NCBI GenBank assembly: GCA_031370005.1
Contig: JANMPT010000075.1
Location: forward strand, 1-64,000
Direction: 5' to 3'
DNA length: 64,000 bases
From: Bdellovibrionales bacterium
GTDB lineage: Bacteria > Bdellovibrionota > Bdellovibrionia > Bdellovibrionales > Bdellovibrionaceae
The notes under the pieces are model-generated. The model did no database searches and was not told where the DNA came from. It worked only from the letters and a program-made list of their open reading frames with translations. Position 1 is the first letter of the stretch; each line of letters begins with the position of its first letter. Of the stretch, positions 21,528 through 45,478 are shown in pieces. Made by a program: the position numbers and the translations under genes.

Positions 21528-22121
21528 TTAATGCTGCGAATCGCTTTCAGTTTTATTGAGATCCAGTTTTTTAAGCTGATCTCGAAATTTATCTAAGAAC
21601 TCTTTCCAATCTGAGCTTCGTTCTTTTCGAGCTAAAACTTCACCATTTGCCGACAGCAAGTATAAGCTAGTTGAGTGAGTGAAATCTCCATCACCTATAT
21701 CTTTATAACTAAAGCCCAAAACAGCGGCCATCTCGCGCACTTGATCTTTGTCAGAGGTTAACAATAGCCAACGCTGATCAAGTCGCATTTTTTTATAAAA
21801 CTTTTTCAAAGCCTCTGGGGTGTCGCGTGCAGGATCAATAGAAAAAGTAACGTATTTGATTTTTTTTCTTTCAATTTTGGTTAACAAAGAATCAAAAGAC
21901 TTAATATCAGAAATCATTAGCGGACAGGCCCCTGGACAACTCGTAAAAGTCATAGTGACTATAGCTGGAAGGCCAGCGAGATCCTTTAAATTTAAAGGTT
22001 TGTTACCTTGTGTTGTCCAAGTTTGCTCAAGTTGATATATGGATTTTGGTGAAATTTCATTTTTTTCTTCTGAATATGAAATACTTGGAAAGATTGCCAG
22101 AAATATAATTAAAAATTTCAT
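21528..22121 (-). CDS. SCO1/SenC copper chaperone
   Basis: FTSCPGACP, SIDPARDTP, conserved His in THS. Confidence 0.92.
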   Translation of the reverse strand: MKFLIIFLAIFPSISYSEEKNEISPKSIYQLEQTWTTQGNKPLNLKDLAGLPAIVTMTFTSCPGACPLMISDIKSFDSLLTKIERKKIKYVTFSIDPARDTPEALKKFYKKMRLDQRWLLLTSDKDQVREMAAVLGFSYKDIGDGDFTHSTSLYLLSANGEVLARKERSSDWKEFLDKFRDQLKKLDLNKTESDSQH

Positions 22122-22888
22122 TTGGAACCCTCTATTTTTAAATCACTAACACATCTAAAACCCAGGTTTCGCATGCAATAATCTCCCTTGAGACCACTAC
22201 GAAATCCATATCTCATAAATGTGGCGTAAGACTTGGAATCCAAAGAACTCACTGAGCCACCACCACAAAAAAATCCATCCGTCCGATCCCCTTTAGACCT
22301 TGAATCAGAAGATATCATTACCGAACTAAAATCCTCAACCCATTCCCAGATTAACCCATGCATATCGTACACACCAAATTTATTTGGTTTTTTAGAACCA
22401 ATATTTTCAATCGGTTGATTGCCAGTTTTGGCATACCAACTCAATAACTCTTTTAAGATATCGGGGTTGGTTGAGTCGGAAGCGTATTCCCATTCAGCGA
22501 TTGTGGGCAACCTTTTGCCAACTGAAAGACAATATTTCCTGGCGACAAACCAAGATACATAAGTGACTGGCTTCAATCCAATGTCTTTTTTTTCATCTTC
22601 AGATAGTGTTTCTTGCTTCCAGTCTTGCAGATAACGTTGATCAACATATAGCGATATTATTTTACTTTTTCGTAGCTTTTGATTTTTCGAAAGAAATTCA
22701 CTGAACTCCGAATTTGTAACTGGATATTTATCTATATAAAAAGAATCAACCTTTACATCTCTGTCCTTTAATTCCTTAAAAAAGGGCTTAAAATTTCCTG
22801 CAGGAATTAAAACTTGATCTGTGTTCAAGGTGCTAGCCCAAGTCAGGCTAAAAAAAATAAGTAGAATTAGGCTAGCAAAAATTTTCAT
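22118..22888 (-). CDS. nirV: Formylglycine-generating-enzyme family protein (NirV-like)
   Basis: KRLPTIAEWEYA, PNKFGVYDMHGLIWEWV, LGFRC; directly downstream of nirK. Confidence 0.85.
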   Translation of the reverse strand: MKIFASLILLIFFSLTWASTLNTDQVLIPAGNFKPFFKELKDRDVKVDSFYIDKYPVTNSEFSEFLSKNQKLRKSKIISLYVDQRYLQDWKQETLSEDEKKDIGLKPVTYVSWFVARKYCLSVGKRLPTIAEWEYASDSTNPDILKELLSWYAKTGNQPIENIGSKKPNKFGVYDMHGLIWEWVEDFSSVMISSDSRSKGDRTDGFFCGGGSVSSLDSKSYATFMRYGFRSGLKGDYCMRNLGFRCVSDLKIEGSK

Positions 22889-22891
22889 AAA

Positions 22892-24316
22892 TTATTTATT
22901 TCGCACGGACTTAACCTCTGATGTTGTAACCTCATCGGATTTATTACCCCATGAATTACGTATAAATGTAAGCACATTGGCAACATCTTCATCGTCTAAT
23001 CCTAAAGCGGGCATTACGCCATTGTACTCCGCTCCGTTGATTATAAGCTTTCCCTGTAAACCGTTTATTACTGTGCTTATTGCGCGATTTTTATCTGCCA
23101 TTAAATAATCAGATTTTGCAAGCGGAGGAAAAGCCCCCTTTAATCCTGTGCCATCAACTTGGTGACAAGCAGCGCAGTTTTGTGCAAAAACTATTTTACC
23201 AGCAGTCATTCTCTCTTCTAGGTTTTTAGCAAAAATTTTCTGCGTAGCCTTCCCATTAGGCATCGTCTGAGTGGCGCCACCTTCCGGCAAGTACACAGTA
23301 TCGGATTGCTTACCCGTATAAATCATTGGATTCTTGTCCCCTTCGACTTTTAACATCCCTAAGGCTCCTTTATTAAAGGCCCTAAAGATCGCGTGATCTA
23401 CTAAAATATAGGTGGAAGGAATATCGATCTTGAATTCAACAATAGCAGAACCACCCGGCGGAACCACCGTCGTCTGGACATTTTCCTGAGCAAGTTTGGT
23501 TCCTCCCTCGGTGTATACCTTGTCAAAAATTTCTCCGATCACATGAAAGTTTGAGGCCAGATTAGGTCCACCAGTGCCGAAGAAAATTCGAACTTTATCT
23601 CCAACATTTGCTTTAATTGAATTGTCCCCGGTTAAAGCACCGACACTGCCATTAAACACTACGTAATCAGGTTGCTCTTTAATTGCTTTCTCCATATCAA
23701 ATGGCTGAAGTCCCTTGTCACCATACTTTCCTTTAGTATAGAAATCTGATTGGACAACGTAAAACTCTTTATCAACTTTTGGCAAAGGATGTTCTGGTTC
23801 AACGTAAATTAAGCCGTACATGCCATTTGCAATGTGCATACCGACTGGGGCCGTTGCACAATGATAAACAAAAAGCCCAGGATTAAGGGCTCTAAAAGAA
23901 AATCTAGAGCTGTGTCCGGGGATTGTCATAGAGCCCTCTGCTCCACCGCCTTGGCCCGTGACTGCATGTAAATCAATATTGTGAGGCATTTTATTTGAAG
24001 GATGATTGTGAAGGTTAAACTCTACGTAATCGCCTACGCGAATACGCATCATTGGTCCTGGAACAGTTCCACCAAATGTCCAAAAATTATATTCAACTCC
24101 ATCAGCAAGACGACCAGTTATCTCTTTTGTTTCTAAGTTTATTTTCACCCGTGCTGGTGTTTTTCTTTTAATAGGTGGGGGCACGTTCGGCGCAGTGGTA
24201 AGAATCGCAGTCTCTTCAGGAAAATTTTTGGGGTCCGCATATTTAGATTTTGCAAGCGATAAACTTGATACAACTAGTAAACAAGCTGTCAGGAGATATT
24301 TTTTCACGACAAGCAC
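22892..24316 (-). CDS. nirK: Copper-containing nitrite reductase with C-terminal cytochrome c domain
   Basis: PHNIDLHAV, YHCATAPVGMHIANGM, FHVIGE and VDHA Cu-ligand motifs; C-terminal CAACH plus Met ligand. Confidence 0.96.
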   Translation of the reverse strand: MLVVKKYLLTACLLVVSSLSLAKSKYADPKNFPEETAILTTAPNVPPPIKRKTPARVKINLETKEITGRLADGVEYNFWTFGGTVPGPMMRIRVGDYVEFNLHNHPSNKMPHNIDLHAVTGQGGGAEGSMTIPGHSSRFSFRALNPGLFVYHCATAPVGMHIANGMYGLIYVEPEHPLPKVDKEFYVVQSDFYTKGKYGDKGLQPFDMEKAIKEQPDYVVFNGSVGALTGDNSIKANVGDKVRIFFGTGGPNLASNFHVIGEIFDKVYTEGGTKLAQENVQTTVVPPGGSAIVEFKIDIPSTYILVDHAIFRAFNKGALGMLKVEGDKNPMIYTGKQSDTVYLPEGGATQTMPNGKATQKIFAKNLEERMTAGKIVFAQNCAACHQVDGTGLKGAFPPLAKSDYLMADKNRAISTVINGLQGKLIINGAEYNGVMPALGLDDEDVANVLTFIRNSWGNKSDEVTTSEVKSVRNK

Positions 24317-24322
24317 CTTTCT

Positions 24323-24679
24323 TTAAGTTTTTTTAGCCCATGAATTGCAATAGGCATCGGCCGGTACGAATTTGTTAGGAAAGATGGCACAGGTGCCCGC
24401 TGCTTTGCCGTTCTTGTTTTCTGATTTCATAAAAAGTGAACAAGTAGCGCATTTGTTGCCCGCGGCTTTTGGTGATTTTTTTGAGTCCTCGACATATCCA
24501 ACTGCCTTTGCTGTTCCATCATTTGGATCCACCATTTCCGACCCAGCATTGCCAGACTTCTTTCGGCGGCTCTCTTCGGCAAAAGCAGTATTGCCAGTAA
24601 ATGCCGAAATTAAAGCTGGCGCAGCTATTACCAATCCAGAAATTCTGGCCATATTCTTAAAAAAATCTCTTCTTTTCAT
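24323..24679 (-). CDS. High-potential iron-sulfur protein (HiPIP), Tat-exported
   Basis: KRRDFFK Tat signal; A.AVGY...CATC..F...C.IF...V...YCNSW. Confidence 0.9.
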   Translation of the reverse strand: MKRRDFFKNMARISGLVIAAPALISAFTGNTAFAEESRRKKSGNAGSEMVDPNDGTAKAVGYVEDSKKSPKAAGNKCATCSLFMKSENKNGKAAGTCAIFPNKFVPADAYCNSWAKKT

Positions 24680-24715: not shown

Positions 24716-24757
24716 ATTCTAATTAAATTTTAAGGGCACGGGTATGATTCAAATCAT
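24716..24757 (-). promoter_or_regulatory. FNR/DNR-activated class II promoter of HiPIP-nirK-nirV-sco
   Basis: ATGAT-tcaa-ATCAT box (24744-24757); minus-strand -10 TAGAAT (24721-24716) places the box centre at about -41.5. Confidence 0.75.
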
Positions 24758-24896: not shown

Positions 24897-24910
24897 ATGA
24901 TCCTAATCAA
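24897..24910 (+). promoter_or_regulatory. FNR/DNR box just upstream of the dnr-like gene (possible autoregulation)
   Basis: ATGAT-ccta-ATCAA, 17 nt before the GTG start. Confidence 0.6.
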
Positions 24911-24927: not shown

Positions 24928-25587
24928 GTGCTTAAACCGCAAGCTCCTAGACCAACTGAGTTCTGTCCTATCTGTTCGAGTCACGAGGAAAAAGTGACAG
25001 ATCAAATTCTACAAATTATTCAAAAAAAAAATTATGCAAAAAACTGCATCATTTTTGAACAAGAGCAGGAAGCTGCTGGTGTCTATCTCATTCAAAAAGG
25101 GAGTGTAAAAATATCTCGTTTTTCCCCTGCTGGTAAGGAAATTCTATTTGAAATTCTTGGCGTTGGAAAAACCTTTGGCGAAAGCGGCCTATTTGGCCAG
25201 GGTCGTCACGCAGACACTGCCACCGCAAGTGAAAATTGTGAACTTTTTATTCTTCCAAAAAATGAGTTTAAAAAAACGTTATCCTCTCACCCTGAACTCT
25301 ATCACTCTGTGATTCACTCGCTTTGTGAGTGGATGGACCGACTCAGTAGCATTATTGAAAATATAAATACCCCCTCCGCCAGGGAACGGGTGTCCTCTTA
25401 TCTTAAAAAAATCCAACAAGACCAGCATAATGCCCTTGTAAATTTGACTGGAAAAAAGCATGAAGTTGCAATGATGCTGGGACTCAGGCCGGAGACCTTT
25501 TCAAGGGCTCTGGCTGAACTAGAAACAGAAGGAATCATTAAAATGAATCACAAGCAAATTCAAGTCCTCCATCCCACAAAACTGTGA
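24928..25587 (+). CDS. Crp/Fnr-family regulator, DNR-like
   Basis: cNMP-binding fold (GKTFGE); recognition helix LGLRPETFSR as in DNR; lacks the full FNR N-terminal Cys cluster. Confidence 0.88.
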   Translation: MLKPQAPRPTEFCPICSSHEEKVTDQILQIIQKKNYAKNCIIFEQEQEAAGVYLIQKGSVKISRFSPAGKEILFEILGVGKTFGESGLFGQGRHADTATASENCELFILPKNEFKKTLSSHPELYHSVIHSLCEWMDRLSSIIENINTPSARERVSSYLKKIQQDQHNALVNLTGKKHEVAMMLGLRPETFSRALAELETEGIIKMNHKQIQVLHPTKL

Positions 25588-25594: not shown

Positions 25595-26731
25595 CTAATC
25601 TTTCGCGTACTTTAAAAAAAACATTTTTGGAAGATAGACCCAGCCCCAGATCAACAAACCCAAAATCCATGCCCATGAGGCATATACCAAGTGTGATTGA
25701 TAGATTGCCACAGAGAACCCAGCGGAGAATCGAGTTATAGCCGCAAATATAACTAATAAAGCCCCAGCAAAAATGGCTTTGGAGCTCTTCTCAAGAGCCA
25801 AGCCGTGGCCTCCATGGGCAAGACTTACACGAGTTGCGATCATCAAAGTCATAAGCCCAAGACCGGAAATAAAAACCAAGTGCAGAAAGTGAATTCGATA
25901 GGCAGGCCACAAGGTAGCGCCCCACTGCCCCACCAGCAATGACCAAGCAGAAAGCCATAACCAAAATGGCTGGTGCCCCTTGCGTGTCGGAAGCAAGTGA
26001 ATTTTCCAAAATCGAAAAATCATAAAACTCATCAGAAATGATCTTAAAAAATTTCCCACAATACTACTGAAAAATACTTCTAAAACATAAGTTAGTACAA
26101 ATAAAAATGCGAGCACTGAAAATAAGCCCAAGCGCGGTGTTGACGTATTAGCTTCATTTGGAAGGGCGCCACGACCTAAAAGGGCGGGGACTAGTCGACT
26201 TCCAACCCCCAGCACTAAAGCCAAAATATAAGCTTGAAGAAAAAATAAACGACCTAAATGCAACCACGAATCCTGAATCCAACCAAAATCACCGAAAATC
26301 AAAAGCAATACGCCGGTGATAGCACTGCCCATACCTACTCCCACAAACACAAATGCATCTGGTGGCGACTGAGTTCGTCGCAAAAAACGCCGCAAAAAAA
26401 ATGCAGCTAAGAACAACAAGAGTAACAGGACTGCAAAATGGAAAATTATAACTCTTCCGAGCAAGGCGCTGATAAAAAGACTTATCAGTAATGTTGCCGA
26501 TATCCAGATGTCCTTAATAGTGGGCGGGAAACTGGCTGTGAATTTGGGGGCCGCAGTCATTAAAAATCCACAAACGAAGCAAAGAAAAAACCCTCCCATC
26601 ATAATTTGTGGATGAAAAAACCCCGGGTAGCTAAGCACGTTGAACGAAAATAAAATCCAAAGTAGAACACCCCAGAGTCCTAACAACCATCCTACAGGAA
26701 AAAAATACCGATAAGCGTCTATTGTTTTCAT
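25595..26731 (-). CDS. nnrS: NnrS family membrane protein (NO response)
   Basis: YRYFFP, H..IMMGGF....CGFLMTA.P.F, IATRVSLAHGG; polytopic. Confidence 0.88.
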   Translation of the reverse strand: MKTIDAYRYFFPVGWLLGLWGVLLWILFSFNVLSYPGFFHPQIMMGGFFLCFVCGFLMTAAPKFTASFPPTIKDIWISATLLISLFISALLGRVIIFHFAVLLLLLFLAAFFLRRFLRRTQSPPDAFVFVGVGMGSAITGVLLLIFGDFGWIQDSWLHLGRLFFLQAYILALVLGVGSRLVPALLGRGALPNEANTSTPRLGLFSVLAFLFVLTYVLEVFFSSIVGNFLRSFLMSFMIFRFWKIHLLPTRKGHQPFWLWLSAWSLLVGQWGATLWPAYRIHFLHLVFISGLGLMTLMIATRVSLAHGGHGLALEKSSKAIFAGALLVIFAAITRFSAGFSVAIYQSHLVYASWAWILGLLIWGWVYLPKMFFLKYAKD

Positions 26732-26752: not shown

Positions 26753-26794
26753 AATCTATACTCGTTCAGGCTTCCAGAGATTGATCTGAATCAT
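26753..26794 (-). promoter_or_regulatory. FNR/DNR-activated class II promoter of nnrS
   Basis: TTGAT-ctga-ATCAT (26781-26794); minus-strand -10 TAGATT (26758-26753) at about -41.5 spacing. Confidence 0.75.
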
Positions 26795-26871
26795 AATTTC
26801 TGCTATTTTTTGTTCAATATATCCAACTCCAGATGATAAACTTAAACTTTAGTGAGTTGGAGAAATTCTGT

Positions 26872-27243
26872 ATGGGCAAACGTCAAAAAGAACTGATTTA
26901 CTCATGTTCAGGCTGCTCAAGTGCCGCGCAAACCGCAAACGCTGTGGCTGTTCGGTTAGACCGGGCCGGAATCGCCGAAATGTCCTGTATCGCCGGTGTT
27001 GGTGGAAATGTTCTCCCACTGGTTCGGATTGCAAAATCTGGACGTAAAATTAACGTGATTGATGGCTGCCCCCTAGCGTGCGCTAAAAATTGTCTAAAAA
27101 GACACGGCATTATCCCAGACCGCCATCACGACCTCTCCACTTTTGGAGTCAAAAAAATTCAACACGGCGATTCCCAACCAGAACAGGTCGAGGAAATTTT
27201 TCAACTCATTAAGGATGAAATAGAAAGAGCAGGGCGCTCATGA
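26872..27243 (+). CDS. DGC-domain putative zinc-binding protein
   Basis: YSCSGCS, MSCIAGVGG, IDGCPLAC; start at MGKRQ after GGAG. Confidence 0.88.
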   Translation: MGKRQKELIYSCSGCSSAAQTANAVAVRLDRAGIAEMSCIAGVGGNVLPLVRIAKSGRKINVIDGCPLACAKNCLKRHGIIPDRHHDLSTFGVKKIQHGDSQPEQVEEIFQLIKDEIERAGRS

Positions 27244-28946
27244 AAACCACTCCTGATAATATCCCTATTATAAATTTTGAAAATCTTTATCTGCAAGACC
27301 CTTTGGCAGATTCACTTTGGTCCTATTGGTTGGGTGAAAAAAACTTTAAAGATCTCCGTGAGCATTTTGTCGACATGGGAAGAAGTGGCGCTCAAGCAAC
27401 TCCATTCTCGGCAAGGGCCGATTCCCTTGGGCCAATACTAAAAACCCACACGCCTCAGGGGCAAAGACAAGATCTGGTCGAGTATCATCCTGACTATCAT
27501 CAGCTAGAAAAGTTGTCCTATGGTGCTGGCATCATCAGTCGAAAATATGATCCCGCATTTTTAAAGCTCTACCGTCCACTTCGTCATTTAGTTGGTTTTG
27601 GTATTGGATATTACTTCGCACAAACAGAAATTGGTCTTTACTGCCCAATCTGCATGACCGACGGAGTCGGCCGAGTCTTGGAACGACACGGCCCACCTGA
27701 GGTCACCCAAACAGTTCTGAAACATATTGGCTCAAAGCAGCTAGAATCTCTATGGCAGGGGGCCATGTTTCTGACCGAAAAACAGGGTGGCTCTGACGTC
27801 GGCGCAAACACTGCGCAAGCGCGAAAGTCAGGAGATCGCTGGCTCATTAGTGGAGACAAATGGTTCTGCTCTAAAGTGGATGCCGAAGCTATTCTCGTTC
27901 TCGCCCGAATGCCTGAAGATGAAGGACGACCCGAAACTGGTACCCGAGGATTGGGTTTGTTTTTGGTTCTCAGACATCTGCCTCCGAAAAATCATCGCCA
28001 CTTACAAATTCACCGTCTTAAGCAAAAAATGGGTGTAAGGTCCATGCCCTCTGGTGAAGTGACCATGGAAAACGCCGAAGGCTTCCTTATTGGTGGTGCC
28101 GGTGAAGGATTTAAACTGATGGCCGAAATGCTCAACATGTCCCGTCTTTACAATTCAGTAGCAAGTATCGCCGGTATGAGACGAGCCATTATGGAGGCAT
28201 TGGCCTACGGTGCTGAACGAAAAGCTTTTGATCTACATCTGCGTGAACTCCCCTTATGGAGAGCCAACATGGCCGACTTGGTTGCTGAGCACATAGGTGC
28301 CATGCACTTGGTGTTCTCCACGGCCCAGTACCTTGATCATGCTGATGGTGGCGATAAGACAGCGCAGCTGATGGTTCGGCTCCTGACTCCGATAACTAAA
28401 GCCTTCACCGGCAAACTTGCAATCTTCGCCGCCAGCGAATCCATGGAAGCCATTGGTGGCAATGCTTACATCGAGGAGCATATCATGCCCCGAATTCTCC
28501 GTGACTGCCAAGTTTTACCTATCTGGGAGGGCACAACAAACATTCTTTCTTTGGATGCTTTACGAGTCCTTCGCAAATATGGACACCAGTTTTACTATAC
28601 GCATTTGGCAGAGATTCTTGAGTCTTGTTCCTTTATTTCTCCTGCCTGGATGCAAGATCTCAAAAAACGACTCTCAGAAGAGCAAGACTTTCTAGGTAAA
28701 TTGCTCACAATGCCGGATGAGGACCAGCAACGAAGCATTCGCGAATGGGTGGAGAGAACAGCCCGAAGTCTCAGCCTGATCAAGTTGTTGCAATCAAGCC
28801 ACGAGACTTCGTTGAAGGCGATCATGGACGCCGCCTATCAACGTTTAGTTTTGCGACCCACTGCCACTTCGCCTCTGGGGGCCTTCCATACTGCTCAACT
28901 AAAACACACAGAGGAAATTCTGCTCAAGGCTGGTTACCAGGCTTAA
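27240..28946 (+). CDS. Acyl-CoA dehydrogenase family protein, AidB-like
   Basis: HPDYH, CPICMT, LTEKQGGSDV, GDKWFCS, IWEGTTN. Confidence 0.88.
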   Translation: MKTTPDNIPIINFENLYLQDPLADSLWSYWLGEKNFKDLREHFVDMGRSGAQATPFSARADSLGPILKTHTPQGQRQDLVEYHPDYHQLEKLSYGAGIISRKYDPAFLKLYRPLRHLVGFGIGYYFAQTEIGLYCPICMTDGVGRVLERHGPPEVTQTVLKHIGSKQLESLWQGAMFLTEKQGGSDVGANTAQARKSGDRWLISGDKWFCSKVDAEAILVLARMPEDEGRPETGTRGLGLFLVLRHLPPKNHRHLQIHRLKQKMGVRSMPSGEVTMENAEGFLIGGAGEGFKLMAEMLNMSRLYNSVASIAGMRRAIMEALAYGAERKAFDLHLRELPLWRANMADLVAEHIGAMHLVFSTAQYLDHADGGDKTAQLMVRLLTPITKAFTGKLAIFAASESMEAIGGNAYIEEHIMPRILRDCQVLPIWEGTTNILSLDALRVLRKYGHQFYYTHLAEILESCSFISPAWMQDLKKRLSEEQDFLGKLLTMPDEDQQRSIREWVERTARSLSLIKLLQSSHETSLKAIMDAAYQRLVLRPTATSPLGAFHTAQLKHTEEILLKAGYQA

Positions 28947-29401
28947 TACTCAAAAGAGAGTTGTTCTCAACGGAAACCCCGAGGTCAATCTTATAAAGCC
29001 CCATGCCTCCGTGCGCCTCGCTCACAGGTTCTCCGTTCATTGTTTGAATTCCCCGAATGGTGGTATTAATCACATCACCCGGCGAGATGACCTCAACATG
29101 ATCCCCTAGTTGCATTTTGTTGCGCACGTCTGCAACCACACCTGAGTCTGAATGAGTTGTTAACAATGCTGATCAGGCCAGGATCGCTCATAATCAAGGC
29201 ATCTGGCTGCAGCTCCGCAAATGTATCGATTTGGTTCGCAAAAGGCTTCAATTTTAAATTACGAGCAAAAATATTCGCAGTTAAGTAAACCTTTTTATGA
29301 AGACGCCGGGCAATCTGAAGACCGGCTTTCAGATCCTCAAGATCAAATTCGTTCTCGCGCGCTCGGAGTGAAAACATTGGCACCCCTGCATAAATTGAAT
29401 C
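28924..29401 (-). pseudogene. trhP: Remnant of a U32-family tRNA hydroxylation protein (TrhP/YegQ) with 5' and internal deletions
   Basis: DSIYAGVPMFSLRARENEF...DALIMSDPGLI (U32 N-part) joined out of frame at about 29160 to VRNKMQLGDHVEVISP (U32_C); central Fe-S-binding region and start codon absent. Confidence 0.8.
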
Positions 29402-29419: not shown

Positions 29420-29460
29420 AGCCTATAAGTAGCCTTATATAAATCAATGACCTCGATCAA
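29420..29460 (-). promoter_or_regulatory. FNR/DNR box and -10 oriented toward the trhP remnant
   Basis: Minus strand TTGAT-cgag-GTCAT (29447-29460) with TAGGCT (29425-29420). Confidence 0.6.
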
Positions 29461-32304: not shown

Positions 32305-32321
32305 AAATCCTTTCAACCTCT

Positions 32322-32807
32322 CTAACTCCGAGGTCCCATTTCTGGCGGGATCTTTTTGTAGATGTTATTAATATGTGTTTTCAAGGTCGCCTTTGAAATA
32401 AAAAGCTTATGCGCCACCTGGGAATTACTGAGTCCACCAAGAAGCAGTGAAACAATATTCAACTCACTTTTGGTCAGATTTTTTTTACGATAAAACTCCA
32501 TCCGTGTACGATGCTTGTTCTCAAGAGGATACAGTAAGGTCAAAAACTGATTTCCATCATTTACCATAACAGTGTCTGCCACTCCGTTTTCAAGTTTTAA
32601 TGTTGGAAAATGGCAAAATCCTTCAATGGGATTTTTTTTATCCTGACAAAACTCATCATATTTTTGGAGGCAGCGACCCTTGCAAGGACTTCCCATTTTG
32701 TTTCCGCATTTTTCAATACAAGCAGTATTTTGGAACAAAACAGTTCTATGATTGTCTTTGATACAAACACCAAGCTTGTTATTTGCAATAAAATCTTGTG
32801 TGTTCAT
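32322..32807 (-). CDS. LuxR-type HTH regulator with a Cys-rich PAS-like N-terminal domain
   Basis: LTKSE....L..GLSN..VA..LFIS..T.KTHINNIYKK; 7 Cys in the N-domain. Confidence 0.82.
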   Translation of the reverse strand: MNTQDFIANNKLGVCIKDNHRTVLFQNTACIEKCGNKMGSPCKGRCLQKYDEFCQDKKNPIEGFCHFPTLKLENGVADTVMVNDGNQFLTLLYPLENKHRTRMEFYRKKNLTKSELNIVSLLLGGLSNSQVAHKLFISKATLKTHINNIYKKIPPEMGPRS

Positions 32808-36944: not shown

Positions 36945-38348
36945 TCATCTCATCAATCGGGTTGTTATGCCTGACGCCAAAATTGTAATCAGCGAGCCCG
37001 TCACAATCCACAAGGGTAAATTGTTAAAGTTACCATAGGCAAAAATGGGTAAGCCAATGCATATAGAAATCAGAATTCCCCAGAAGACACCAGCCTCAGG
37101 TAATTTCTTTCCAAGAATCGTAAATACTGTCGGAAGAAACGTCGCAGAGCGAATCGTGCCATAAAATAAAAACAAGTGAAGAATTTTAAGTCCTGGGATA
37201 TTGGCAACTATCAAGGCAAAACTTGCCAACAGAATCATGCTCAAACGCGAACTACGCAGGACCGCCCCCACCGGATGAACTTGAGTTCCGCGCAAACGAT
37301 TAAGGACATCATGACCACCGATGCTTGAGATAGAAGAAAGTTTAGAATCAAGAATGGAAATCAAACCCGACAACACCAAAAACATAAATGGTATGCTTGC
37401 CCAGAGCGGCAAGAAGTGCTGAAGTGTTTCTAGATTCACCATCGGAACTTCATGAATATCTAGTTTTGCGCCGACGGCTATGAAGCCAAGAACCGACATC
37501 GACAGCGGAACCAGAGCAAAAAGAAATGCGGACAATAAAAATGCCTTTTTAACATTCTTTTCCTGAACTGCAAAAGCTCTTTGCCAAAAAGACTGGTCGC
37601 CAAAAGGTCCAGAAATAAGACCGATGGTTATGGGTAATCCAAAACTTAGAAAAATTTTCCAGCTCTCAGCTGAAAAGAAATCAAGAGTTCCCACCTTGCC
37701 CGGAAGCCCCGCCAAAAAGACAACCGCACCGCCAGAGGACTCAAAGACCCATGGGATCAACCATAAACTCATGGAGTAAATAAAAATCATTTTTGCATAG
37801 TCGGTGACCACAGACGACTTCAAACCAAAAAATAGCGAATAACTTAAAGGAACTGATGTCAAAATCACTGTGCACCAAAAAAATGGAATCCCAGTGATTT
37901 TTTGCATGAACTGACCACCGGCCAGGAGTTGTACGGCAAAGGCGCAAACAGTTAGGCCAACCAGCGTAAACCAATATAGTCCTTGCACTCTGAAAGAGTA
38001 GCGGCTGCGAATGTAGTCGGAAAGAGTAAAGCCTTCGGGAACTTGCTTACGAATTTTTTCTGCGAAGAACGCAAACAAAACTAGGCAAAGAACATTGGGA
38101 ACAAGAAACCACCCAAAGCCAATCAAGCCATCAGTATAGGCTTTCTGCGCGCTTATAAACAAGGAGGGTGCCCAAATCCAAGAAGCGGCTATGGAGAATG
38201 CCGCCTCCCAAAGTCCCAAGTTTCTGTTAGCAACTAAAAATCCAGTTTTACTCGAGTTGAGCTTACGAGAAAAAGACCAGGCTAGGGCCAATGAAATCAA
38301 GGTAAAAACAAACAGAAACAACAAAAGTGCCCATGAGCCAGTTGTCAT
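36945..38348 (-). CDS. Sodium:solute symporter (SSS) family transporter
   Basis: FLVANR....AFSIAASW, GLKSSVVTD, DQSFWQR; about 13 TM segments; starts 1 nt after the nrdD stop. Confidence 0.85.
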   Translation of the reverse strand: MTTGSWALLLFLFVFTLISLALAWSFSRKLNSSKTGFLVANRNLGLWEAAFSIAASWIWAPSLFISAQKAYTDGLIGFGWFLVPNVLCLVLFAFFAEKIRKQVPEGFTLSDYIRSRYSFRVQGLYWFTLVGLTVCAFAVQLLAGGQFMQKITGIPFFWCTVILTSVPLSYSLFFGLKSSVVTDYAKMIFIYSMSLWLIPWVFESSGGAVVFLAGLPGKVGTLDFFSAESWKIFLSFGLPITIGLISGPFGDQSFWQRAFAVQEKNVKKAFLLSAFLFALVPLSMSVLGFIAVGAKLDIHEVPMVNLETLQHFLPLWASIPFMFLVLSGLISILDSKLSSISSIGGHDVLNRLRGTQVHPVGAVLRSSRLSMILLASFALIVANIPGLKILHLFLFYGTIRSATFLPTVFTILGKKLPEAGVFWGILISICIGLPIFAYGNFNNLPLWIVTGSLITILASGITTRLMR

Positions 38349-38349
38349 T

Positions 38350-40212
38350 TTAAGTCATCCTTTCAGAAACTTCCAGATTAGAAATTGATTTTGCACGCGG
38401 AGTCGCTCTCAGTGTCTGTTTATTTTCTCCCGCACTCTGTTCATGGTAAAATCTCCGAACCGCTTCCACTTGACGACCAGAACTAAAAGAAGAAATCCTT
38501 TTCAGATAACCAATAACTCTCGTTGCATGGTCTACGTTTTCACTCATGCAACGTGAACACCGTTTAAGAGTTCTTTTATCAATATGATCACATTCATTGC
38601 AAATGGTGATTTTGACATTCACACACCAGTAGTTGCATCCCGCCTTGGCACCCGCACAAAGAAGCTTATAATAGGCTTCCTTGGTGAGTCTTTCCTCAAG
38701 ATTGAGGTGCAAGGCCGAGCCTCCGTCCAGATATTGCATCATTTCCTGCCCGTGCATTTGAATCTTATCAATTGGAGTCACACTATCATCTTCAACTACA
38801 TAAAAATACGAGTTATAACAATCACGAGGGACAAAAAGACCATCTTTACGATCCCAACTCGCGTTTTTTATGCCTAAATTTTCAGCTGGCACGAACTCAG
38901 TATTAAACATATAGCCAAATTGTTTTTTAGCCTGCCTATTGGCATCATAGATGATTTTTAATTTTTCACGAACAAATTGTTTGTAGTCTTTTTCATTGCG
39001 AACTAAAAGACCTTGGGATTCGGCGGCCTCTACCATTCCATTGATTCCAATGGTTAAGAACTGTTTGTCTAGACTTATAAAGCCCCCTGAATAAGCCGTC
39101 AATAAACCCACTTGAAAGTACTCCTCCATCAAGCGTCGATAAGCAACTTGGTACTTTTGCACCTTTTCAACACAGTCCTGGAGATCAATTTTCTTTTGCG
39201 TGAGACGATTCACGTTGATCGTGATTACATTGACGGATCCGGTAGCAACACCGCCCGCCCCTAAGGAATAGCTAAAAGTCTTGTCAGAAATTTCATTGCG
39301 AAGACGACAGCAGCTTGCTAAGCTGTCAGCAGATTCGCTCATATACATAAAAAAACTATTCCCTTCGCTAAGCTCCTGAGCACACATCGATGCAAAATCA
39401 GCGTCTCTTGGTTTTTGAGAATCCACAAGCATCGCTGCGGTCACAACTGGAAAGGTCAAAAGAGCTTTTTTTCTCTCCTGATTAAACCAAGTCATAAAAT
39501 GATTTTGTAACTTCGAAACATTGTTCCAATCTGGAGTTCCTCCATCGGGAAATACAAAATCCCCAAACAAGGAATTGAAGTAGTATTGATCATAGACTGA
39601 GATATTCCAAAAAACGGATTGATAACCTCTAGCTGCCGCAGGTTGATTTAAGGCATAGACGACATGTTGAAGATGATTATCAATAATCCGGGTATGAGTC
39701 TTTAAATACTCAACTCCATAGTCTTTGCGCGCAAAATAATCGAAGTACATCAGCCATTCAACGGTTGCAACGGCTCCAGCAAATTGTGATGAGACAGCAA
39801 AAATTAGATTAACAAAGGTCCCGCAAAAGCTCTCTAAGTGTTTAGGCGCTTCCGATTCGCCGCCAAGTTTTTTCAAACCATCAATCAGTAAAGGATACAT
39901 GGAAATCGACGCGCAATAGGGCTTCAAAGATGTTTCATCATGAACATAAATTTCATGTTCTTGGATTTGTCTAATATATTCGAGAGCCAGTTCCTTATCG
40001 AAAATTTCTGAAATTTTATTAGCTACCAACTGACGGTTCACTTGAATATTGATATCTTTATTGATTTCCGCCTCTAAAGTCGCAATGTTCTTATGGGTAA
40101 CGTTAGCATTGGCATCTAATTTCGAACCATCTGCAGCATTCTTTGCGTACATATAATTTTCTATAAAGTTAATTTTCTGCTGGATTTGCTCTTCATTGAG
40201 ACGTGTAAACAT
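38350..40212 (-). CDS. nrdD: Anaerobic (class III) ribonucleoside-triphosphate reductase, ATP-cone-less, SCCRL type
   Basis: IYVHD, LTFPV, SCCRL finger loop, PAE, CNEC/CSRC Zn site, glycyl-radical TRVIGYL; start at MFTRL after AAAGGAG. Confidence 0.95.
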   Translation of the reverse strand: MFTRLNEEQIQQKINFIENYMYAKNAADGSKLDANANVTHKNIATLEAEINKDINIQVNRQLVANKISEIFDKELALEYIRQIQEHEIYVHDETSLKPYCASISMYPLLIDGLKKLGGESEAPKHLESFCGTFVNLIFAVSSQFAGAVATVEWLMYFDYFARKDYGVEYLKTHTRIIDNHLQHVVYALNQPAAARGYQSVFWNISVYDQYYFNSLFGDFVFPDGGTPDWNNVSKLQNHFMTWFNQERKKALLTFPVVTAAMLVDSQKPRDADFASMCAQELSEGNSFFMYMSESADSLASCCRLRNEISDKTFSYSLGAGGVATGSVNVITINVNRLTQKKIDLQDCVEKVQKYQVAYRRLMEEYFQVGLLTAYSGGFISLDKQFLTIGINGMVEAAESQGLLVRNEKDYKQFVREKLKIIYDANRQAKKQFGYMFNTEFVPAENLGIKNASWDRKDGLFVPRDCYNSYFYVVEDDSVTPIDKIQMHGQEMMQYLDGGSALHLNLEERLTKEAYYKLLCAGAKAGCNYWCVNVKITICNECDHIDKRTLKRCSRCMSENVDHATRVIGYLKRISSFSSGRQVEAVRRFYHEQSAGENKQTLRATPRAKSISNLEVSERMT

Positions 40213-40229
40213 AGAAACTCCTTTTTCTG

Positions 40230-40682
40230 TCATGGTGTGTGTTGAAATAAATGATTTAGAATTTTTTTTTGTTTTAAATCCCAAAAAACCTGATTCGTCG
40301 CTGGTGAGCTCAAGCCGCCTAGCTTCTGCATCCAAGGCCCGAGCTTTACAAAATCCAAATTATTTTCTAATTCTTTAGGTATCGCCTCTAAACCTGTATA
40401 AAGCGCTGTTTTAAATTTTTGTTCTTGTGCGATTTTAAGAAAATCGTTGAGCTGATGAAGATGCCATTCCCCCCCCATAAAAAGAATACAGCTGACGTAA
40501 GCTTTATATCGTCCCAATAAATAGTCATATAAATCAGAGGTAAGAGGATCGCCGTTTTTTTCTGTCCATAATTCGGCTGAATGACAAAATTTGCAACGCA
40601 ATGGGCATCCACAGACATAAAACGCCAGACTGATTTCATCCGGTACTTCTTGAAAAAGAATGTCATGCTTATAAATGTTCAT
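40230..40682 (-). CDS. nrdG: Anaerobic RNR activating protein (radical SAM)
   Basis: FQEVPDEISL, GCPLRCKFCHS, GGEW, KLGPW, TNQ. Confidence 0.93.
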   Translation of the reverse strand: MNIYKHDILFQEVPDEISLAFYVCGCPLRCKFCHSAELWTEKNGDPLTSDLYDYLLGRYKAYVSCILFMGGEWHLHQLNDFLKIAQEQKFKTALYTGLEAIPKELENNLDFVKLGPWMQKLGGLSSPATNQVFWDLKQKKILNHLFQHTP

Positions 40683-40729
40683 AATGACCACATCCTGTGA
40701 TCATAAGGTTAACAAGGGGTTTTCTTAAA

Positions 40730-40777
40730 TCACTAGGGATTGTGTCTTTTGTTGATCCAAAACACTATATACCCAGT
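40730..40777. promoter_or_regulatory. Tandem NrdR boxes upstream of nrdG-nrdD
   Basis: TCACTAGGGATTGTGT (40730) and ACACTATATACCCAGT (40762), each about 12/16 to acaCwAtATaTwGtgt, 32 bp apart; the second overlaps the -10 TATAGT. Confidence 0.6.
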
Positions 40778-40786: not shown

Positions 40787-40812
40787 CAAACATTGATCGG
40801 GATCAATGTTTG
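40787..40812. promoter_or_regulatory. Consensus FNR box within a 12-bp-arm palindrome, between nrdG and the MCP gene
   Basis: CAAACATTGATC-GG-GATCAATGTTTG containing TTGAT-cggg-ATCAA; minus-strand -10 TATAGT at 40769-40764 (box about -42.5). Confidence 0.8.
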
Positions 40813-40901: not shown

Positions 40902-42671
40902 ATGACAATTAGTCTACGACTCAAAATAATAGGTCTTGTTTCTGCCCCACTCTTAATTTCTCTTTTTTACGGCGGACTGTCGTTGCAGTCAAAATGGAGT
41001 CTTTCCAAAGAAGCCCGCCGAGTAGTTGAGGGTGCAAAACTTCTGGAGTTCAACTCCGAACTCATCCACGAAACTCAACTTGAAAGAGCCAAAACCGCTC
41101 TTTTTTTAAATGACAAACTTGATTTAAATGAGCTCAACCTCCATCGAGAAATCGTCGGAAAAAAAATGACCGCCGTCACAGATCAATTCGCCCTAGCTGA
41201 GCTGCCCCCAGCTGCTACAACAACTCTTGAGGGTATCCGCAACAGCTTAAGGGACTTCCGAGCCTCCGTCGATAAAAGGGCCATCGCCCCCACAGAGGCT
41301 GCAAAACAAATCACTCAAATCATCGGGCAAATGATAAGCCTTGATGTGTTTATCTCCTCCACCAACTCAATTGAGGGAACCAACATGGCCCTGCTCAGCC
41401 TGACAATGCTGGAGCTTGGCAAAGAATATGGAGGTAGGTTTAGAGTCAACCTTTTAAATGTTCTTTCCGCCAACAAGCCTTTAAGCTCTCTTCAGCTTTC
41501 AATGCTTGAGAGTTTAAAAACCGGCCTCATCGTAAATATGGACTCTCCTGTTTTGATGATCAGCAGCGAGGGTCGGCAAAAATTAAACAGCTTCAAAGAA
41601 TCTAACGACTGGGAAAAGGTCAACTCGATTTACAATCACGTCTTAGAAAAATCTTCAGAGGGAAACTTCAACCAGGACCCAAAAGAATTTTTCAGTGCTA
41701 TGACCGCTGCCTTAAACAGCATTGGTGAGATCATCAAATTTGAAATCAGCAAAGACCGGGCGCGAATTGAAGCCCTTCATGAGAAGACTCTTCACTCGTT
41801 TACTGTAAACCTGATTATTATCTCGATATTGGATCTTGTTTTGATCGCACTTACAAGCATCATGGTCCGCGCTATCTCCTCAGCGCTCAACAGCACCGTC
41901 AAAAGTCTCTCCCAGGCATCAGAGTCTATCTCCTTAAATAGCTCTCAGGTCGCAAAGGCCAGCAATCAAGTCGCGACCGGGGCCGTTGAGTCCGCCAGCG
42001 CCCTGGAGGAAGTGGTTGCCTCTATCGAAGAACTCAACAGCATTGTTGCTCAAAACACCCTGCGCGCAAAACAGGCTGCCGAATTCTCCGGCCAAGGATA
42101 TTCTATGGTTGATTCAGGTAAAAAAGAAATGGATCTATTGATTCAAGCCATGGCTGGAATATCCGAAAGCTCTAAAAAAATTGAAGAGATCATCAATGTC
42201 ATTGACGACATTGCTTTTCAAACAAACTTACTGGCACTCAATGCCGCCGTTGAAGCCGCCCGCGCGGGAGAACAAGGTAAAGGTTTTGCGGTGGTCGCTG
42301 AGGCCGTACGATCTCTGGCCCAACGAAGTGCGGTGGCGGCCAAAGACATCTCCTCTTTGATTAAAGAGAGCTCCAACAAAATTCAAGAAGGAGTTCAAAA
42401 AGTCACAGTCACCAGCTCCTCGCTTTTAAAAACTGTCGATACTATCAGTAAGATATCCAGTCTTAATTCTGAAATCTCGAATTCCAGTGAAGAACAAGTT
42501 CAAGGAATCAATCAGATTAGCACAGCAATCAACAAACTCGATACCTCGACCCAACAAAATGCCTCAGCAGCTGAGGAAGTCTCAGCTTCCTCAGATCAAA
42601 TGAACCAACAAATCAGCACTATCGGAGAGTTGGTCATTCTTCTTTCGAATCTTGTTGAAGGAGAACTTTGA
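40902..42671 (+). CDS. Methyl-accepting chemotaxis protein with a NIT-like periplasmic sensor domain
   Basis: Two TMs; [16 protein letters not shown] and KEYGGRFR resemble NIT motifs; [30 protein letters not shown] signalling domain; start at MTISL after AAGGA. Confidence 0.9.
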
Positions 42672-42774: not shown

Positions 42775-44133
42775 ATGGACCTAATGAAAAAACAGTTTTT
42801 GGCAGTGGCAGCAATAAGCGCTTTGCTCGGATCCGCGATGGCAAACGCCTCTGTCACACTCTTAGATAAAGACAATTGGAAAGTTCAAATGAACGGTTTT
42901 GTGGAGGCCGACATGATCCACGACTCGACCCGAAGCTTTGGCGAGGTCGTCGGCAGCAACTTCGTTGACAGACCTGGCACTTATAAGGGCGATAATGGCA
43001 GAACTCAGTTTTCAAATCGCAACTCGCGCCTCGCCTTTACCTTGCTTCCACCGATCCAAAATGACTGGAAATCAAAAGGCGTTTTAGAATTTGACCTTTT
43101 TGGCTATGAACCCAATGTCGGCACCTCTAGCCCAAATATGAGCGAAACAAGCTTCTACCAAAGCCCGGCGATGCGTCTGCGTCTTGCTTATTTGACTAAC
43201 GAAAAAGATTCTTGGCAATTTACTGCCGGACAAGCCTGGAGTCTGTTTGGATGGCAACCAAGCTTTTTCCCAGCAACTCTCTCTGTGTTTCCTGAAGCTG
43301 GCGAAATTTGCCAAAGGACTTTACAGTTTTTAGCCATCAACACCATGGCAATCGGCGGCAGCAGTAAAATTCAAACGGCAGCTTCAATGGAAAGGCCTTC
43401 ACAAAGAGACTCTCAGGTTCCGAATTTCAATCTCGGAGTGAAATACAGCTTGGATTCACTGCGCGCAGGTTTTGTATCCGCTTACGGCGACGAGAAAACT
43501 GAGCCTTTGAGCGTCGGTCTGTCAGGCGCTTTCAAACAATTTACAACTCCCTCATCGACAACTGCGACGAACACGCAAAACCATTATAACTCTTCAGCTG
43601 TGGCCGTGGACGTACTGATTCCCATTATCCCCTCTGCAGATGGAAAAGACACGGGCAATACTTTAATATTTAGTGGGGAATTCACCTCAGGTACTGGTTA
43701 TGCGGATGCCTTGGCAAACTGGTCGGGAGGTTTGATAGGTTTTGCCTCGAACACCTCTGTGGGAAACGTCGGCGATAAGACAAATTTAGATGCTGGCCAC
43801 GCTGGTTTTGATGCAAATGCTAACTTTAACTTCGTGAAGTTACAAACCTGGAATGCCTCTTTTCAATACCACTTTTCAAGTGAGTCGAAACTCTATTCGA
43901 ATCTGGGTTATGCAGAGATTTTTTCCAGCAATGTCGGCGACCTGACTCAATCCGCGAGCGCAGCGTCAGCGGTTTATGACAAATCCTCCTCTTATTATAT
44001 CAACTTGATTAAAGACGTCACTAATCAGACCCGTCTGGGATTTGAATACAGCAACTTTGTCACCCATTACTTCTCTGATAAATCGACGGCCGCCAATGAC
44101 CGTTATCAGATCACAGCTTTGTTTAGATTCTAA
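42775..44133 (+). CDS. Outer-membrane beta-barrel channel (DcaP-like porin)
   Basis: Signal peptide; GF..AD...D, SRLAF, RLRLAY, GQAWSLF; C-terminal F. Confidence 0.75.
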   Translation: MDLMKKQFLAVAAISALLGSAMANASVTLLDKDNWKVQMNGFVEADMIHDSTRSFGEVVGSNFVDRPGTYKGDNGRTQFSNRNSRLAFTLLPPIQNDWKSKGVLEFDLFGYEPNVGTSSPNMSETSFYQSPAMRLRLAYLTNEKDSWQFTAGQAWSLFGWQPSFFPATLSVFPEAGEICQRTLQFLAINTMAIGGSSKIQTAASMERPSQRDSQVPNFNLGVKYSLDSLRAGFVSAYGDEKTEPLSVGLSGAFKQFTTPSSTTATNTQNHYNSSAVAVDVLIPIIPSADGKDTGNTLIFSGEFTSGTGYADALANWSGGLIGFASNTSVGNVGDKTNLDAGHAGFDANANFNFVKLQTWNASFQYHFSSESKLYSNLGYAEIFSSNVGDLTQSASAASAVYDKSSSYYINLIKDVTNQTRLGFEYSNFVTHYFSDKSTAANDRYQITALFRF

Positions 44134-44160
44134 CAGCAGTCGCCATCGGCGGAGCCAAAA

Positions 44161-44190
44161 TTGATAAGGATCAATATTGATCCTTATCAC
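44161..44190. promoter_or_regulatory. Tandem FNR-type boxes forming a perfect 28-bp palindrome upstream of the second Crp/Fnr gene
   Basis: TTGAT-aagg-ATCAA-ta-TTGAT-cctt-ATCAC; 44162-44189 TGATAAGGATCAATATTGATCCTTATCA is self-complementary. Confidence 0.8.
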
Positions 44191-44237
44191 CTTGTAAGGA
44201 AGCCTCAATTGTGTGAGCCTGAACGGGCGGAGGTACC

Positions 44238-44942
44238 ATGTCGTCCGACAAGCTCAAAAAAATTCAATCCCTCGATATTTTCCAAGACCTTAAACAAGAG
44301 GAACTTGCTGTTATTGATCGGTCCAGCGAGTACCTTCATTTAAAGAACAATGAACCACTTTTCCATGAAAATGATCCAATCAAAAATGTTTATATTATTG
44401 TTTATGGCTCGTTCAAAATACTCCGTAAAAGCAAACAAGACGATTCCGTTATTTTTAACTTTCTTGGCAGAAATGAAGTGCTTGGAATATCAATGGCGCG
44501 CTTGCCAAACCCCCAGTTCCGGGTATCCGCCATCGCCAACGAAGAGAGCTGCGTTTTAAAAATGAGTCTTCCTGATTTTAATAAATTATTTTTAAAAAAC
44601 CCATTGCTCGAGCCAAGGATTCAGCTGCAGCTTACGCAACGATTCTTAGATTTTCAAGAAGATCGCTGTTCAAGAAAATCCTTAGCCGCGCAAAGGCTTG
44701 CTGATTTCCTCCTACGCACTCTTGATCGCCAACCCCTATCCTGTCGCCAACAAATCATAATTCCACTCACTCGAAACGACATCGCCCGAAGAATTGGCTC
44801 GGAAAATGAAACCGTTGTTCGCTTGATGAGCCAATGGACTAAAAACGGATGGATAGAGACACACTCTAAACATGTGGAAATCTTAAACCGCCAGGCCCTT
44901 GAAGATTTAAAAGCCCCGCCGATGAAGGGCCAAAGCGCGTGA
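44238..44942 (+). CDS. Crp/Fnr-family transcriptional regulator
   Basis: cNMP domain; PLTRNDIARRIGSENETVVR HTH; GGAGG RBS. Confidence 0.9.
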   Translation: MSSDKLKKIQSLDIFQDLKQEELAVIDRSSEYLHLKNNEPLFHENDPIKNVYIIVYGSFKILRKSKQDDSVIFNFLGRNEVLGISMARLPNPQFRVSAIANEESCVLKMSLPDFNKLFLKNPLLEPRIQLQLTQRFLDFQEDRCSRKSLAAQRLADFLLRTLDRQPLSCRQQIIIPLTRNDIARRIGSENETVVRLMSQWTKNGWIETHSKHVEILNRQALEDLKAPPMKGQSA

Positions 44943-45478
44943 AGCTTCTTATAAAAACCCTCAAATCCGAACACGAAACAATTCTTGAAGAAATAAAATT
45001 CCTAGAGGATTCCAAGCTTGTAGATGAGGCGCGGCTCAGCAGCTTGTTTCATTTTGTCGAGTTCACTCACCACGAAAAAGAAGAAGCTATTTTATTTCCC
45101 TGGATGGCTAAGCAAAATTGGCTTAGGCAGGGTGGCCCGCTGTGTGGACACTTTATGAGTGTGCGTCTTGACTTGAATCCCCTTACGCGTATGCATCAGC
45201 ACTTAGAGGATTTTTATATAAAACATCTTTATTTGCCTTCTTATAATAAAAGTTTTTCCTGGTTAAACCCACAAAACCCAATGAGTATTCCGATGGAAGA
45301 ACATGAGATGGGGCATCTTCTGAGCCAGACTCTTCTATATTTAATTCAAACTCCACAGGAAGCTCCAAAAAAAGATTTTTTTAGAACTCTTCTTGAGGAC
45401 TATTTCTCGCTGCTGAGAATGCACATCCATAAAGAAGACAATTGTCTTTTTGTCCAATGTGAACAGGGCTGGTACTAG
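44939..45478 (+). CDS. Hemerythrin-domain (HHE) protein
   Basis: LKSEH..I, HHEKEEAILFP, MEEHE, HIHKEDNCLF. Confidence 0.85.
   Translation: MKLLIKTLKSEHETILEEIKFLEDSKLVDEARLSSLFHFVEFTHHEKEEAILFPWMAKQNWLRQGGPLCGHFMSVRLDLNPLTRMHQHLEDFYIKHLYLPSYNKSFSWLNPQNPMSIPMEEHEMGHLLSQTLLYLIQTPQEAPKKDFFRTLLEDYFSLLRMHIHKEDNCLFVQCEQGWY

Follow-up and report, generated by a model that had tools for sequence, protein, structure and literature searches.

ANR-DNR of Pseudomonas and FnrL-Dnr of Dinoroseobacter shibae are the closest described systems. As far as the accessible text of PMC5398030 goes, an oxygen sensor with a cysteine cluster is tied there to the cbb3 oxidase and a DNR-like protein to nir, nor and nnrS, the boxes lie near -41.5, divergent genes share sites, and the Dnr site cannot be told apart from the Anr box. 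Here we analysed a stretch of 64,000 nt (the window) from a Bdellovibrionales bacterium, in which positions 21528 to 45478 form an island with nirK (nitrite reductase), nnrS, nrdGD (class III ribonucleotide reductase, RNR) and two Crp/Fnr regulators. The island resembles these systems in sensor-target ties, box position and shared sites, but an outer base, A or T, separates its boxes into two classes, the FNR-like protein carries an ETV[I/M]R instead of an ExxSR helix, and near its N-terminus the DNR-like protein keeps an invariant CxxC. The window is contig C54 of its genome, G000 (99.8% complete, 3.2 Mb, 123 contigs); below, G, L and C numbers denote genomes, loci and contigs of G000.

Covariation of Crp/Fnr residues and bases has been described in a comparative study of nitrogen-oxide regulons (HcpR, DNR, NnrR) whose available text correlates positions 180/181 with bases G3/A6 (PMC1274295), whereas here it links the outer base to the residue preceding the arginine; Bdellovibrio goes unmentioned in the main text of that paper and of PMC3590769, and figures and supplements of both could bear on the motif. 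The enzyme type, NirK with a C-terminal cytochrome c, is known from Burkholderia, Ralstonia and Bdellovibrio (PMC4770552), and nitrite and nitric oxide (NO) reductases have been reported in B. bacteriovorus HD100, with anoxic nitrate predation cited and the word FNR absent from the accessible text (bioRxiv 10.64898/2026.07.03.736386). The accessible text of these two sources shares with our analysis the enzyme and the idea of low-oxygen persistence or nitrate-dependent anoxic predation; it describes no regulation, and G000 differs in being without a canonical NO reductase (Nor). Anaerobic niches have been suggested, and korAB noted, for Bdellovibrionota (PMC13200544, available part). Such genes in a lineage commonly seen as aerobic predators are therefore less of a surprise than the initial annotation had held, since nirK, nor and anoxic nitrate predation are in print and an NCBIfam model named RNR_anaer_Bdell exists, which the class III RNR of the window passes. 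In titles and the starts of abstracts, within a literature thin on subscription papers and regulon databases, we found no description of a Bdellovibrio DNR/FNR-nirK-nnrS regulon or of the A-type motif. The anoxia genes are known and common; what is new is the two-class box code.

We consider it reasonably probable (about 0.6) that the island carries two versions of the FNR box, likely read by two regulators that would form a low-oxygen-to-NO cascade, and that it does not support sustained anaerobic growth in G000. This bears on how FNR/ANR and DNR of denitrifiers choose their own promoters among near-identical boxes; the family is a natural case of this, its boxes differing sharply in one base and T/T, A/A and hybrid sites being already at hand.

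Boxes and promoter spacing in the island

The features on which the argument rests are as follows.

21528..22121, minus strand: copper chaperone of the SCO1/SenC type, closing the nirK operon (PF02630, E 5e-21; adjoins nirK in relatives)
22118..22888, minus strand: FGE-sulfatase-domain protein (PF03781), which we take to be NirV-like
22892..24316, minus strand: nirK, copper nitrite reductase with C-terminal cytochrome c (TIGR02376, 370 bits, cut-off 296; CxxCH); type 1 and type 2 copper motifs kept
24323..24679, minus strand: HiPIP (PF01355), probable electron donor of NirK
24716..24721, minus strand: predicted HiPIP-nirK -10, TAGAAT, with the box centre 29.5 nt away
24744..24757, unstranded: A/A box ATGAT-N4-ATCAT for HiPIP-nirK-FGE-SCO (ortholog site in L044)
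24897..24910, unstranded: A/T hybrid box without a class II -10 (matrix and pattern scan), located 24 nt upstream of the DNR-like gene; likely autoregulatory
24928..25587, plus strand: DNR-like Crp/Fnr regulator with PETFSR helix and invariant N-terminal CPIC (domain search and ortholog alignment)
25595..26731, minus strand: nnrS (PF05940)
26753..26758, minus strand: predicted nnrS -10 TAGATT, 29.5 nt from the box centre
26781..26794, unstranded: hybrid box in the gap that separates nnrS from DGC-aidB, with class II spacing on the nnrS side (scan)
29447..29460, unstranded: hybrid box between the trhP remnant and ctaA (scan), with TAGGCT (29420-29425) at 28.5 nt
38350..40335, minus strand: nrdD, class III RNR (TIGR02827, 1009 bits); true start likely at about 40212-40233
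40230..40691, minus strand: nrdG activase (orthologs adjoin nrdD in relatives; CxxxCxxC in the translation)
40730..40745, unstranded: NrdR-type box 2 (motif before 13/19 nrdG orthologs versus 4/185 other genes)
40762..40777, unstranded: degenerate NrdR-type box 1, containing the predicted -10 TATAGT (by eye; beyond the scan's mismatch limit)
40793..40806, unstranded: perfect T/T box facing nrdG, top non-coding site of the genome (matrix scan)
44161..44190, unstranded: tandem T-type boxes before the second regulator, without a class II -10 in G000 (scan)
44238..44942, plus strand: second Crp/Fnr regulator, ENETVVR helix, without cysteine cluster (domain search and tree set)
44939..45478, plus strand: hemerythrin HHE-domain protein (PF01814)

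The seven TTGAT-N4-ATCAA-type sites that the initial annotation had read as FNR/DNR boxes were all found in place: those at 40793 and 44161 are perfect, those at 24897, 26781 and 44177 have one mismatch, and those at 24744 and 29447 have two. The window holds 17 matches with at most one mismatch against 5.8 expected, a number reached in 0/100 shuffles. Four boxes had also been said to lie within 1 nt of the class II distance from a -10, and the distances bear this out: 29.5 nt, the class II spacing, at nirK (TAGAAT) and nnrS (TAGATT), and 1 nt off at trhP (TAGGCT, 28.5 nt, atypical) and nrdG (TATAGT at 40764-40769, 30.5 nt). Given an either-strand background of 11.4%, four of seven boxes with such a -10 corresponds to a post hoc P of about 0.004. 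As predicted targets of these boxes, HiPIP-nirK, nnrS and nrdGD stand; TATAGT lies inside an NrdR-type box, and trhP is a remnant. The second regulator had a site upstream (at most one mismatch) in 11 of 12 orthologs.

The plain consensus is not enriched genome-wide outside crudely called genes (2/33 perfect and 30/338 one-mismatch matches; 9.5% non-coding), so that the expectation of boxes above background holds for the island and not for the genome at large. With a refined pattern, 7 of the 38 non-coding matches fall in the island, which makes up 3,184 of 572,057 non-coding nt (0.56%; P 2e-9). A matrix was trained on 55 sites from relatives only, leaving out four nrdG sites located at start codons or before a non-orthologous gene. 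By this matrix the four best non-coding sites of G000 are 40793, 26781, 24897 and 29447, and 6 of the 20 non-coding sites scoring at least 13 bits lie in the island. Among the training sites TAnnnT occurs at 29.5 nt in 15/55 and at 30.5 nt in 5/55 (xAnnnT in 29/55), and at other distances in at most three each, except for eight at 47.5 nt; the class II spacing is conserved in relatives. A genome-wide regulon was considered and rejected, because, of 56 non-coding core matches, only the one at the cbb3 (ccoI) promoter convinces as a class II site outside the island. Judged from these comparisons, the proposed Crp/Fnr-type control of nirK, nnrS, nrdGD and the second regulator appears to be real and conserved.

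On contigs C8, C13, C50, C51, C114, C117 and C118, a near-consensus 14-mer has five non-coding occurrences, and a second one stands at the start of three near-identical frames of 200 aa; these are likely repeats rather than regulon sites.

Two box classes distinguished by one outer base

We scanned 32 loci from genomes with an ortholog of the 24928 regulator (PETFSR ortholog) and 28 from genomes lacking it, leaving the outer base free and requiring a -10 at 29.5 or 30.5 nt; genes with less than 150 nt upstream were skipped, and a site shared by divergent genes was counted twice. From the ortholog-less set came 45 gene-site pairs (18 genomes, 7 genera), mostly ATGAY-N4-RTCAT, with 82 A, 5 C and 3 G but no T (0/90) as the outer base of the half-sites. 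In genomes with the ortholog the 75 pairs comprised 93 T, 55 A and 2 G half-sites (T in 93/150), and every scorable genome (22/22) had a T half-site (TTGAY). The box of the DUF2249 operon is T/T in 16/16 cases with the ortholog, whereas without it 12 of 13 are A/A and one is C/A. The contrast also appears within the window's own genus, where G003, which has no ortholog, has A/A sites and G004, G005 and G006 have T sites. We concluded that the boxes fall into two classes by one outer base.

The A/A class is also seen, independently, at the cbb3 oxidase. In 21 loci an FNR-like gene is followed by ccoI, and ATGAY-N4-RTCAT is present in 19 of them with a -10 at 29.5 nt (18) or 30.5 nt (1); among these 19 are 5/6 genomes without a PETFSR ortholog. 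In G000 this block (C22:3828-11929; L037) consists of the FNR-like gene, an A/A class II box at C22:4553, ccoI, a ccoNO fusion, ccoP and ccoG, and in some relatives (L085-L088) the ccoI block is joined to the nirK island. The FNR-like protein (C22:3828-4526) has the helix PETVMR and the cysteines C16-x2-C19-x8-C28 and C118, which are kept in orthologs; all 30 loci show ETV[I/M]R in place of the ExxSR helix, and the box associated with it is ATGAY-N4-RTCAT in place of TTGAT-N4-ATCAA. Its cysteines and its position before ccoI-ccoNO-ccoP-ccoG suggest an oxygen sensor, presumably with an oxygen-labile Fe-S cluster.

The PETFSR recognition helix reported for a resident regulator was located in the 24928 protein. 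It is the helix of P. aeruginosa DNR and occurs in 26 of 27 orthologs of the tree set, the remaining one having PETLSR. The protein lacks the four-cysteine motif of FNR and has only an invariant CxxC near the N-terminus. The position aligned to His187, presumably the heme ligand of DNR, is an invariant Met183. On account of Met183 and the CxxC we did not file the protein as DNR, though it would probably act like one. None of the NCBIfam models passed for it, and its AlphaFold model has a mean predicted local distance difference test (pLDDT) score of 65.5, with the N-terminus below 50, too low to be informative on heme binding or NO response. The regulator tree was a quick one with a long-branch warning and without reference DNR, and was not used for ancestry. 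In work on FNR, contact with the outer base of the box is ascribed to the residue that precedes the helix arginine.

It is likely that the two classes are read by separate regulators. The initial annotation had assigned all boxes to one DNR-like regulator, which is not supported, because A/A boxes such as that of nirK occur where the PETFSR regulator is missing; the nirK box, being A/A, is likely not its target. A further explanation is that any Crp/Fnr protein present reads all boxes and that A or T was inherited with two island lineages without regulatory meaning. Hybrid sites are indeed many, the resident regulators of the two genome groups belong to different clades, and NESLSR proteins occur where T sites do not. 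Where both regulators are present, however, the class follows the target (ccoI A/A in 19/19 primary sites, DUF2249 T/T in 16/16), and T/T and A/A boxes stand side by side before ccoI in two loci; we regard such overlapping specificity as unlikely.

The NESLSR protein of G000 (C70:100114-100968) has a helix-turn-helix 82% identical to one in G114, and three orthologs had none of the core boxes within 1.5 kb. Islands without a PETFSR ortholog carry E[S/T]x[I/V]R-type regulators.

The proposed cascade and the limits of anoxic growth

The phylum named in the initial annotation was right. Among 24 loci that carry the 24928 regulator, 23 have titles naming Bdellovibrio, Pseudobdellovibrionaceae or other Bdellovibrionota (the last is a 3-kb contig titled Bacillota), and ribosomal protein S1 is 88% identical to the L059 copy; by these markers the host is a member of the Pseudobdellovibrionaceae, Bdellovibrionota. 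In a sample of 151 genomes of this family, G000 included, nirK was present in 66, a match to cNor or qNor in 49, the PETFSR ortholog in 28, relatives of the 44238 regulator in 54, nrdD in 48 and the FNR-like protein in 75. The PETFSR ortholog never occurs without nirK (28/28), and nrdD is found in 46/66 genomes with nirK versus 2/85 without. A box-bearing core of nirK-FGE-SCO, nnrS, nrdGD, regulators, hemerythrin, DUF2249 and often norCBQD recurs in relatives in shuffled order, so the region is an accessory island, common across the family. It is present in cultured B. bacteriovorus (L047, L052, L060), so it supplies a regulatory map, open to testing, for the predation reported at low oxygen and in dependence on nitrate.

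In the proposed mechanism, when oxygen falls, the FNR-like protein would bind ATGAY-N4-RTCAT at -41.5 and switch on the cbb3 oxidase operon and HiPIP-nirK-FGE-SCO. NirK would then convert nitrite to NO, and the PETFSR regulator, likely responsive to NO or a nitrosative signal, would bind TTGAY half-sites to activate nnrS, the second regulator together with hemerythrin, and nrdGD, on which NrdR acts as a further gate. Either protein could use a hybrid A/T box, which would hence take both inputs. That the PETFSR protein senses NO is suggested by its targets, namely nor, nnrS and the DUF2249 operon.

NrdR may add control by deoxynucleoside triphosphates (dNTPs) at nrdGD. The E. coli nrdDG promoter is under FNR and NrdR control. 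As in E. coli, an activator box lies upstream of nrdG and two tandem NrdR-type boxes spaced 32 nt, called at 40730-40777 with what we assume to be the NrdR consensus, lie over the -10 region; the difference is that the activator box here is of the T/T class and assigned to the DNR-like protein. An nrdR gene is present in G000, and a similar NrdR-type site precedes the class Ia RNR gene on C7.

Several points weigh against this cascade. Kinship among the genomes makes the Fisher values overstated, and the A/T split may rest on few events, such as two island lineages. It could be the second resident regulator (ETVVR) and not the FNR-like protein that reads the A/A boxes, and in G036 A-type sites go with just one ESVIR regulator, meaning that more than one clade reads the A class. 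NESLSR, an ExxSR helix, is present in 3/5 examined ortholog-less genomes and in G000, which makes the rule that serine alone gives T too simple. At nrdG, only 2/20 core sites in relatives have class II spacing, which is weak. A nor operon could be missing from an assembly in 123 contigs, and the C-branch oxidase on C31, or cbb3, might reduce NO.

As to an NO sink, searches of G000 gave no match for cNor, qNor, NorC, NorB, NorQ or NorD, and molybdopterin oxidoreductases (Nar/Nap), NosZ, Hcp, globin and bd oxidase were not found either. By the gene content of this assembly G000 would not count as a nitrite-respiring denitrifier, NO, nitrate and N2O reductases all being unmatched, and NirK would make NO without a canonical sink. 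The heme-copper subunits are three: aa3, the cbb3 CcoN-CcoO fusion and the C31 protein, of the C branch without family placement. A 759-aa heme-copper frame on C22, considered as qNor, turned out to be the CcoN-CcoO fusion. The C31 run (C31:44005-48398; L038:8006-12399) has four genes, for a c4-type cytochrome, a TsdA/SoxA-like cytochrome, a CcoN-like subunit and a CcoO-like tri-heme subunit. The CcoN-like subunit has WIHDAIG in helix VI and neither the cross-link Tyr of cbb3 nor the glutamates of Nor; NO or N2O chemistry is possible for the run. According to the accessible part of PMC11214002, which defines the oxidase families and tabulates Bdellovibrionota genomes, the 'N2O red' family has no active-site Tyr and has Tyr at the W236 position; C31:45686 lacks the cbb3 cross-link Tyr, and no Tyr was seen at the W236 position, where the alignment is gapped.

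In the absence of canonical Nor, the most likely uses of the island in G000 would be micro-oxic respiration, nitrite as an electron overflow, NO tolerance and dNTP supply in anoxic spells, that is, low-oxygen survival and likely not full growth without oxygen. Respiration of nitrite to N2O would be open to relatives that have norCBQD or qNor. Extending this to the whole family is more tentative: the A box would serve the ETV[I/M]R oxygen sensor and T the CxxC-bearing PETFSR NO sensor, with hybrids integrating both, and the island would let members with an NO sink (in G000 the C31 oxidase or cbb3) complete DNA replication during anoxic predation, using nitrite that the prey produces.

It had been claimed that the island encodes a full anoxic growth programme, with one DNR-like regulator driving nitrite respiration, DNA synthesis, 2-oxoacid oxidation and taxis. 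The boxes and their spacing are real, nrdD tracks nirK, the chemoreceptor has a NIT domain, korAB stands behind norCBQD in a box-led run in G102 and near a 19-bit site in G006, a hemN-like gene (named by resemblance) and a class II RNR are encoded elsewhere in G000 besides class Ia RNR, and anoxic nitrate predation has been cited for B. bacteriovorus. This programme nevertheless seems improbable to us for G000, with the missing reductases listed above, a broken trhP, no class II sites at korA and the chemoreceptor, and A/A boxes independent of the PETFSR regulator. The presence of nirK and nrdD is not readable as anaerobic growth, since canonical Nor is unseen in 26 of the 66 nirK genomes and found in the other 40.

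Still less probable is that the island is decaying in G000, with Nor and trhP lost and the remaining boxes being leftovers of little function. The trhP remnant would fit, as would the norCBQD between the regulator and nrdD in the closest relative, G005 (regulator identity 85%), and the failure to find a DUF2249 match in G000; but nirK, nrdDG, nnrS and the two regulators are unbroken and have strong sites, and PETFSR genomes without a canonical Nor match are not rare (7/28, Nor being found in the other 21), Nor-less nirK genomes including the single-contig G015 and G117.

Other genes of the island

The remaining features of the island are listed below.

26833..27243, plus strand: DGC-domain protein (PF08859; in islands of G006, G102 and G035)
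27240..28946, plus strand: AidB-like acyl-CoA dehydrogenase (PF18158)
28945..29401, minus strand: remnant of trhP (U32), lacking about 23 codons at the N-terminus and about 246 in the centre
29529..30560, plus strand: ctaA, heme A synthase (PF02628)
30526..32316, minus strand: pyridoxal-phosphate-dependent decarboxylase (PF00282; recurs in islands)
32322..32807, minus strand: LuxR-type regulator (PF00196)
32830..33996, minus strand: acyl-CoA dehydrogenase, paired with korAB in many relatives (domain search and synteny)
34126..35916, plus strand: korA, 2-oxoacid:acceptor oxidoreductase alpha (TIGR03710, above cut-off), without a strong box (best site 7.4 bits)
35918..36940, plus strand: korB (TIGR02177 match below cut-off)
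36945..38348, minus strand: sodium:solute symporter directly downstream of nrdD (PF00474; no ortholog among the fetched loci)
40902..42671, plus strand: chemoreceptor (MCP) with NIT (nitrate/nitrite-sensing) domain (PF08376, E 2.5e-20; start from ortholog alignments)
42775..44133, plus strand: DcaP-like outer-membrane porin (feature search only); weak site at 42689

The trhP gene had been taken for a working O2-independent tRNA hydroxylase. It is doubly truncated: the remnant aligns to two parts of a 419-aa ortholog (residues 24-102 and 349-413), the frame changes where they meet and a stop lies upstream, and the U32 domain (PF01136) has no scoring match anywhere in G000. An assembly error was rejected as the cause, because an unbroken contig from run X1 is identical here, though that run (freshwater sediment) may be the source sample.

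The genes korAB, DGC, aidB, acyl-CoA dehydrogenase, ctaA, the decarboxylase, trhP and the chemoreceptor recur in such islands, some of them in box-led operons. In G102, korAB and ctaA follow norCBQD in the box-led run and a class II box precedes acyl-CoA dehydrogenase-trhP, and in G006 the 19-bit box lies between DGC-aidB and korA; because of this recurrence they are not accidental neighbours. The claimed place of korAB (ferredoxin-linked 2-oxoacid oxidation) in the regulon could not be upheld: besides the poor site in G000, just one of 17 other korA loci has a strong one. The luxR-acyl-CoA dehydrogenase-korA order is syntenic in G002, a genome without a close ortholog of the 24928 regulator. 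The claimed link to taxis through the chemoreceptor is likewise unsupported, the 40793 box having no -10 at class II distance on that side.

The window's NirK is 81-83% identical to copies of another genus, g3 (G102, G153, G163), and 70% to those of the same-genus G004 and G006, which hints at exchange between genera. The island is flanked by a cysteine-rich predicted lipoprotein (20863-21240) and a polymorphic-membrane-repeat protein (45514-47418), neither of which has an ortholog among the fetched loci of relatives. The small contigs C97, C111 and C1, which may be foreign to the bin, hold second copies, each partial, of korA (44%), sucA and an RNR large subunit. A role of korAB as a substitute for a missing 2-oxoglutarate dehydrogenase was rejected, sucA being present in G000 and 39/41 relatives. 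In L089, L091, L093-L095, L099 and L103, korAB is repeatedly paired with one type of acyl-CoA dehydrogenase, 70-91% identical, and this pairing suggests a 2-oxoadipate/glutaryl-CoA route.

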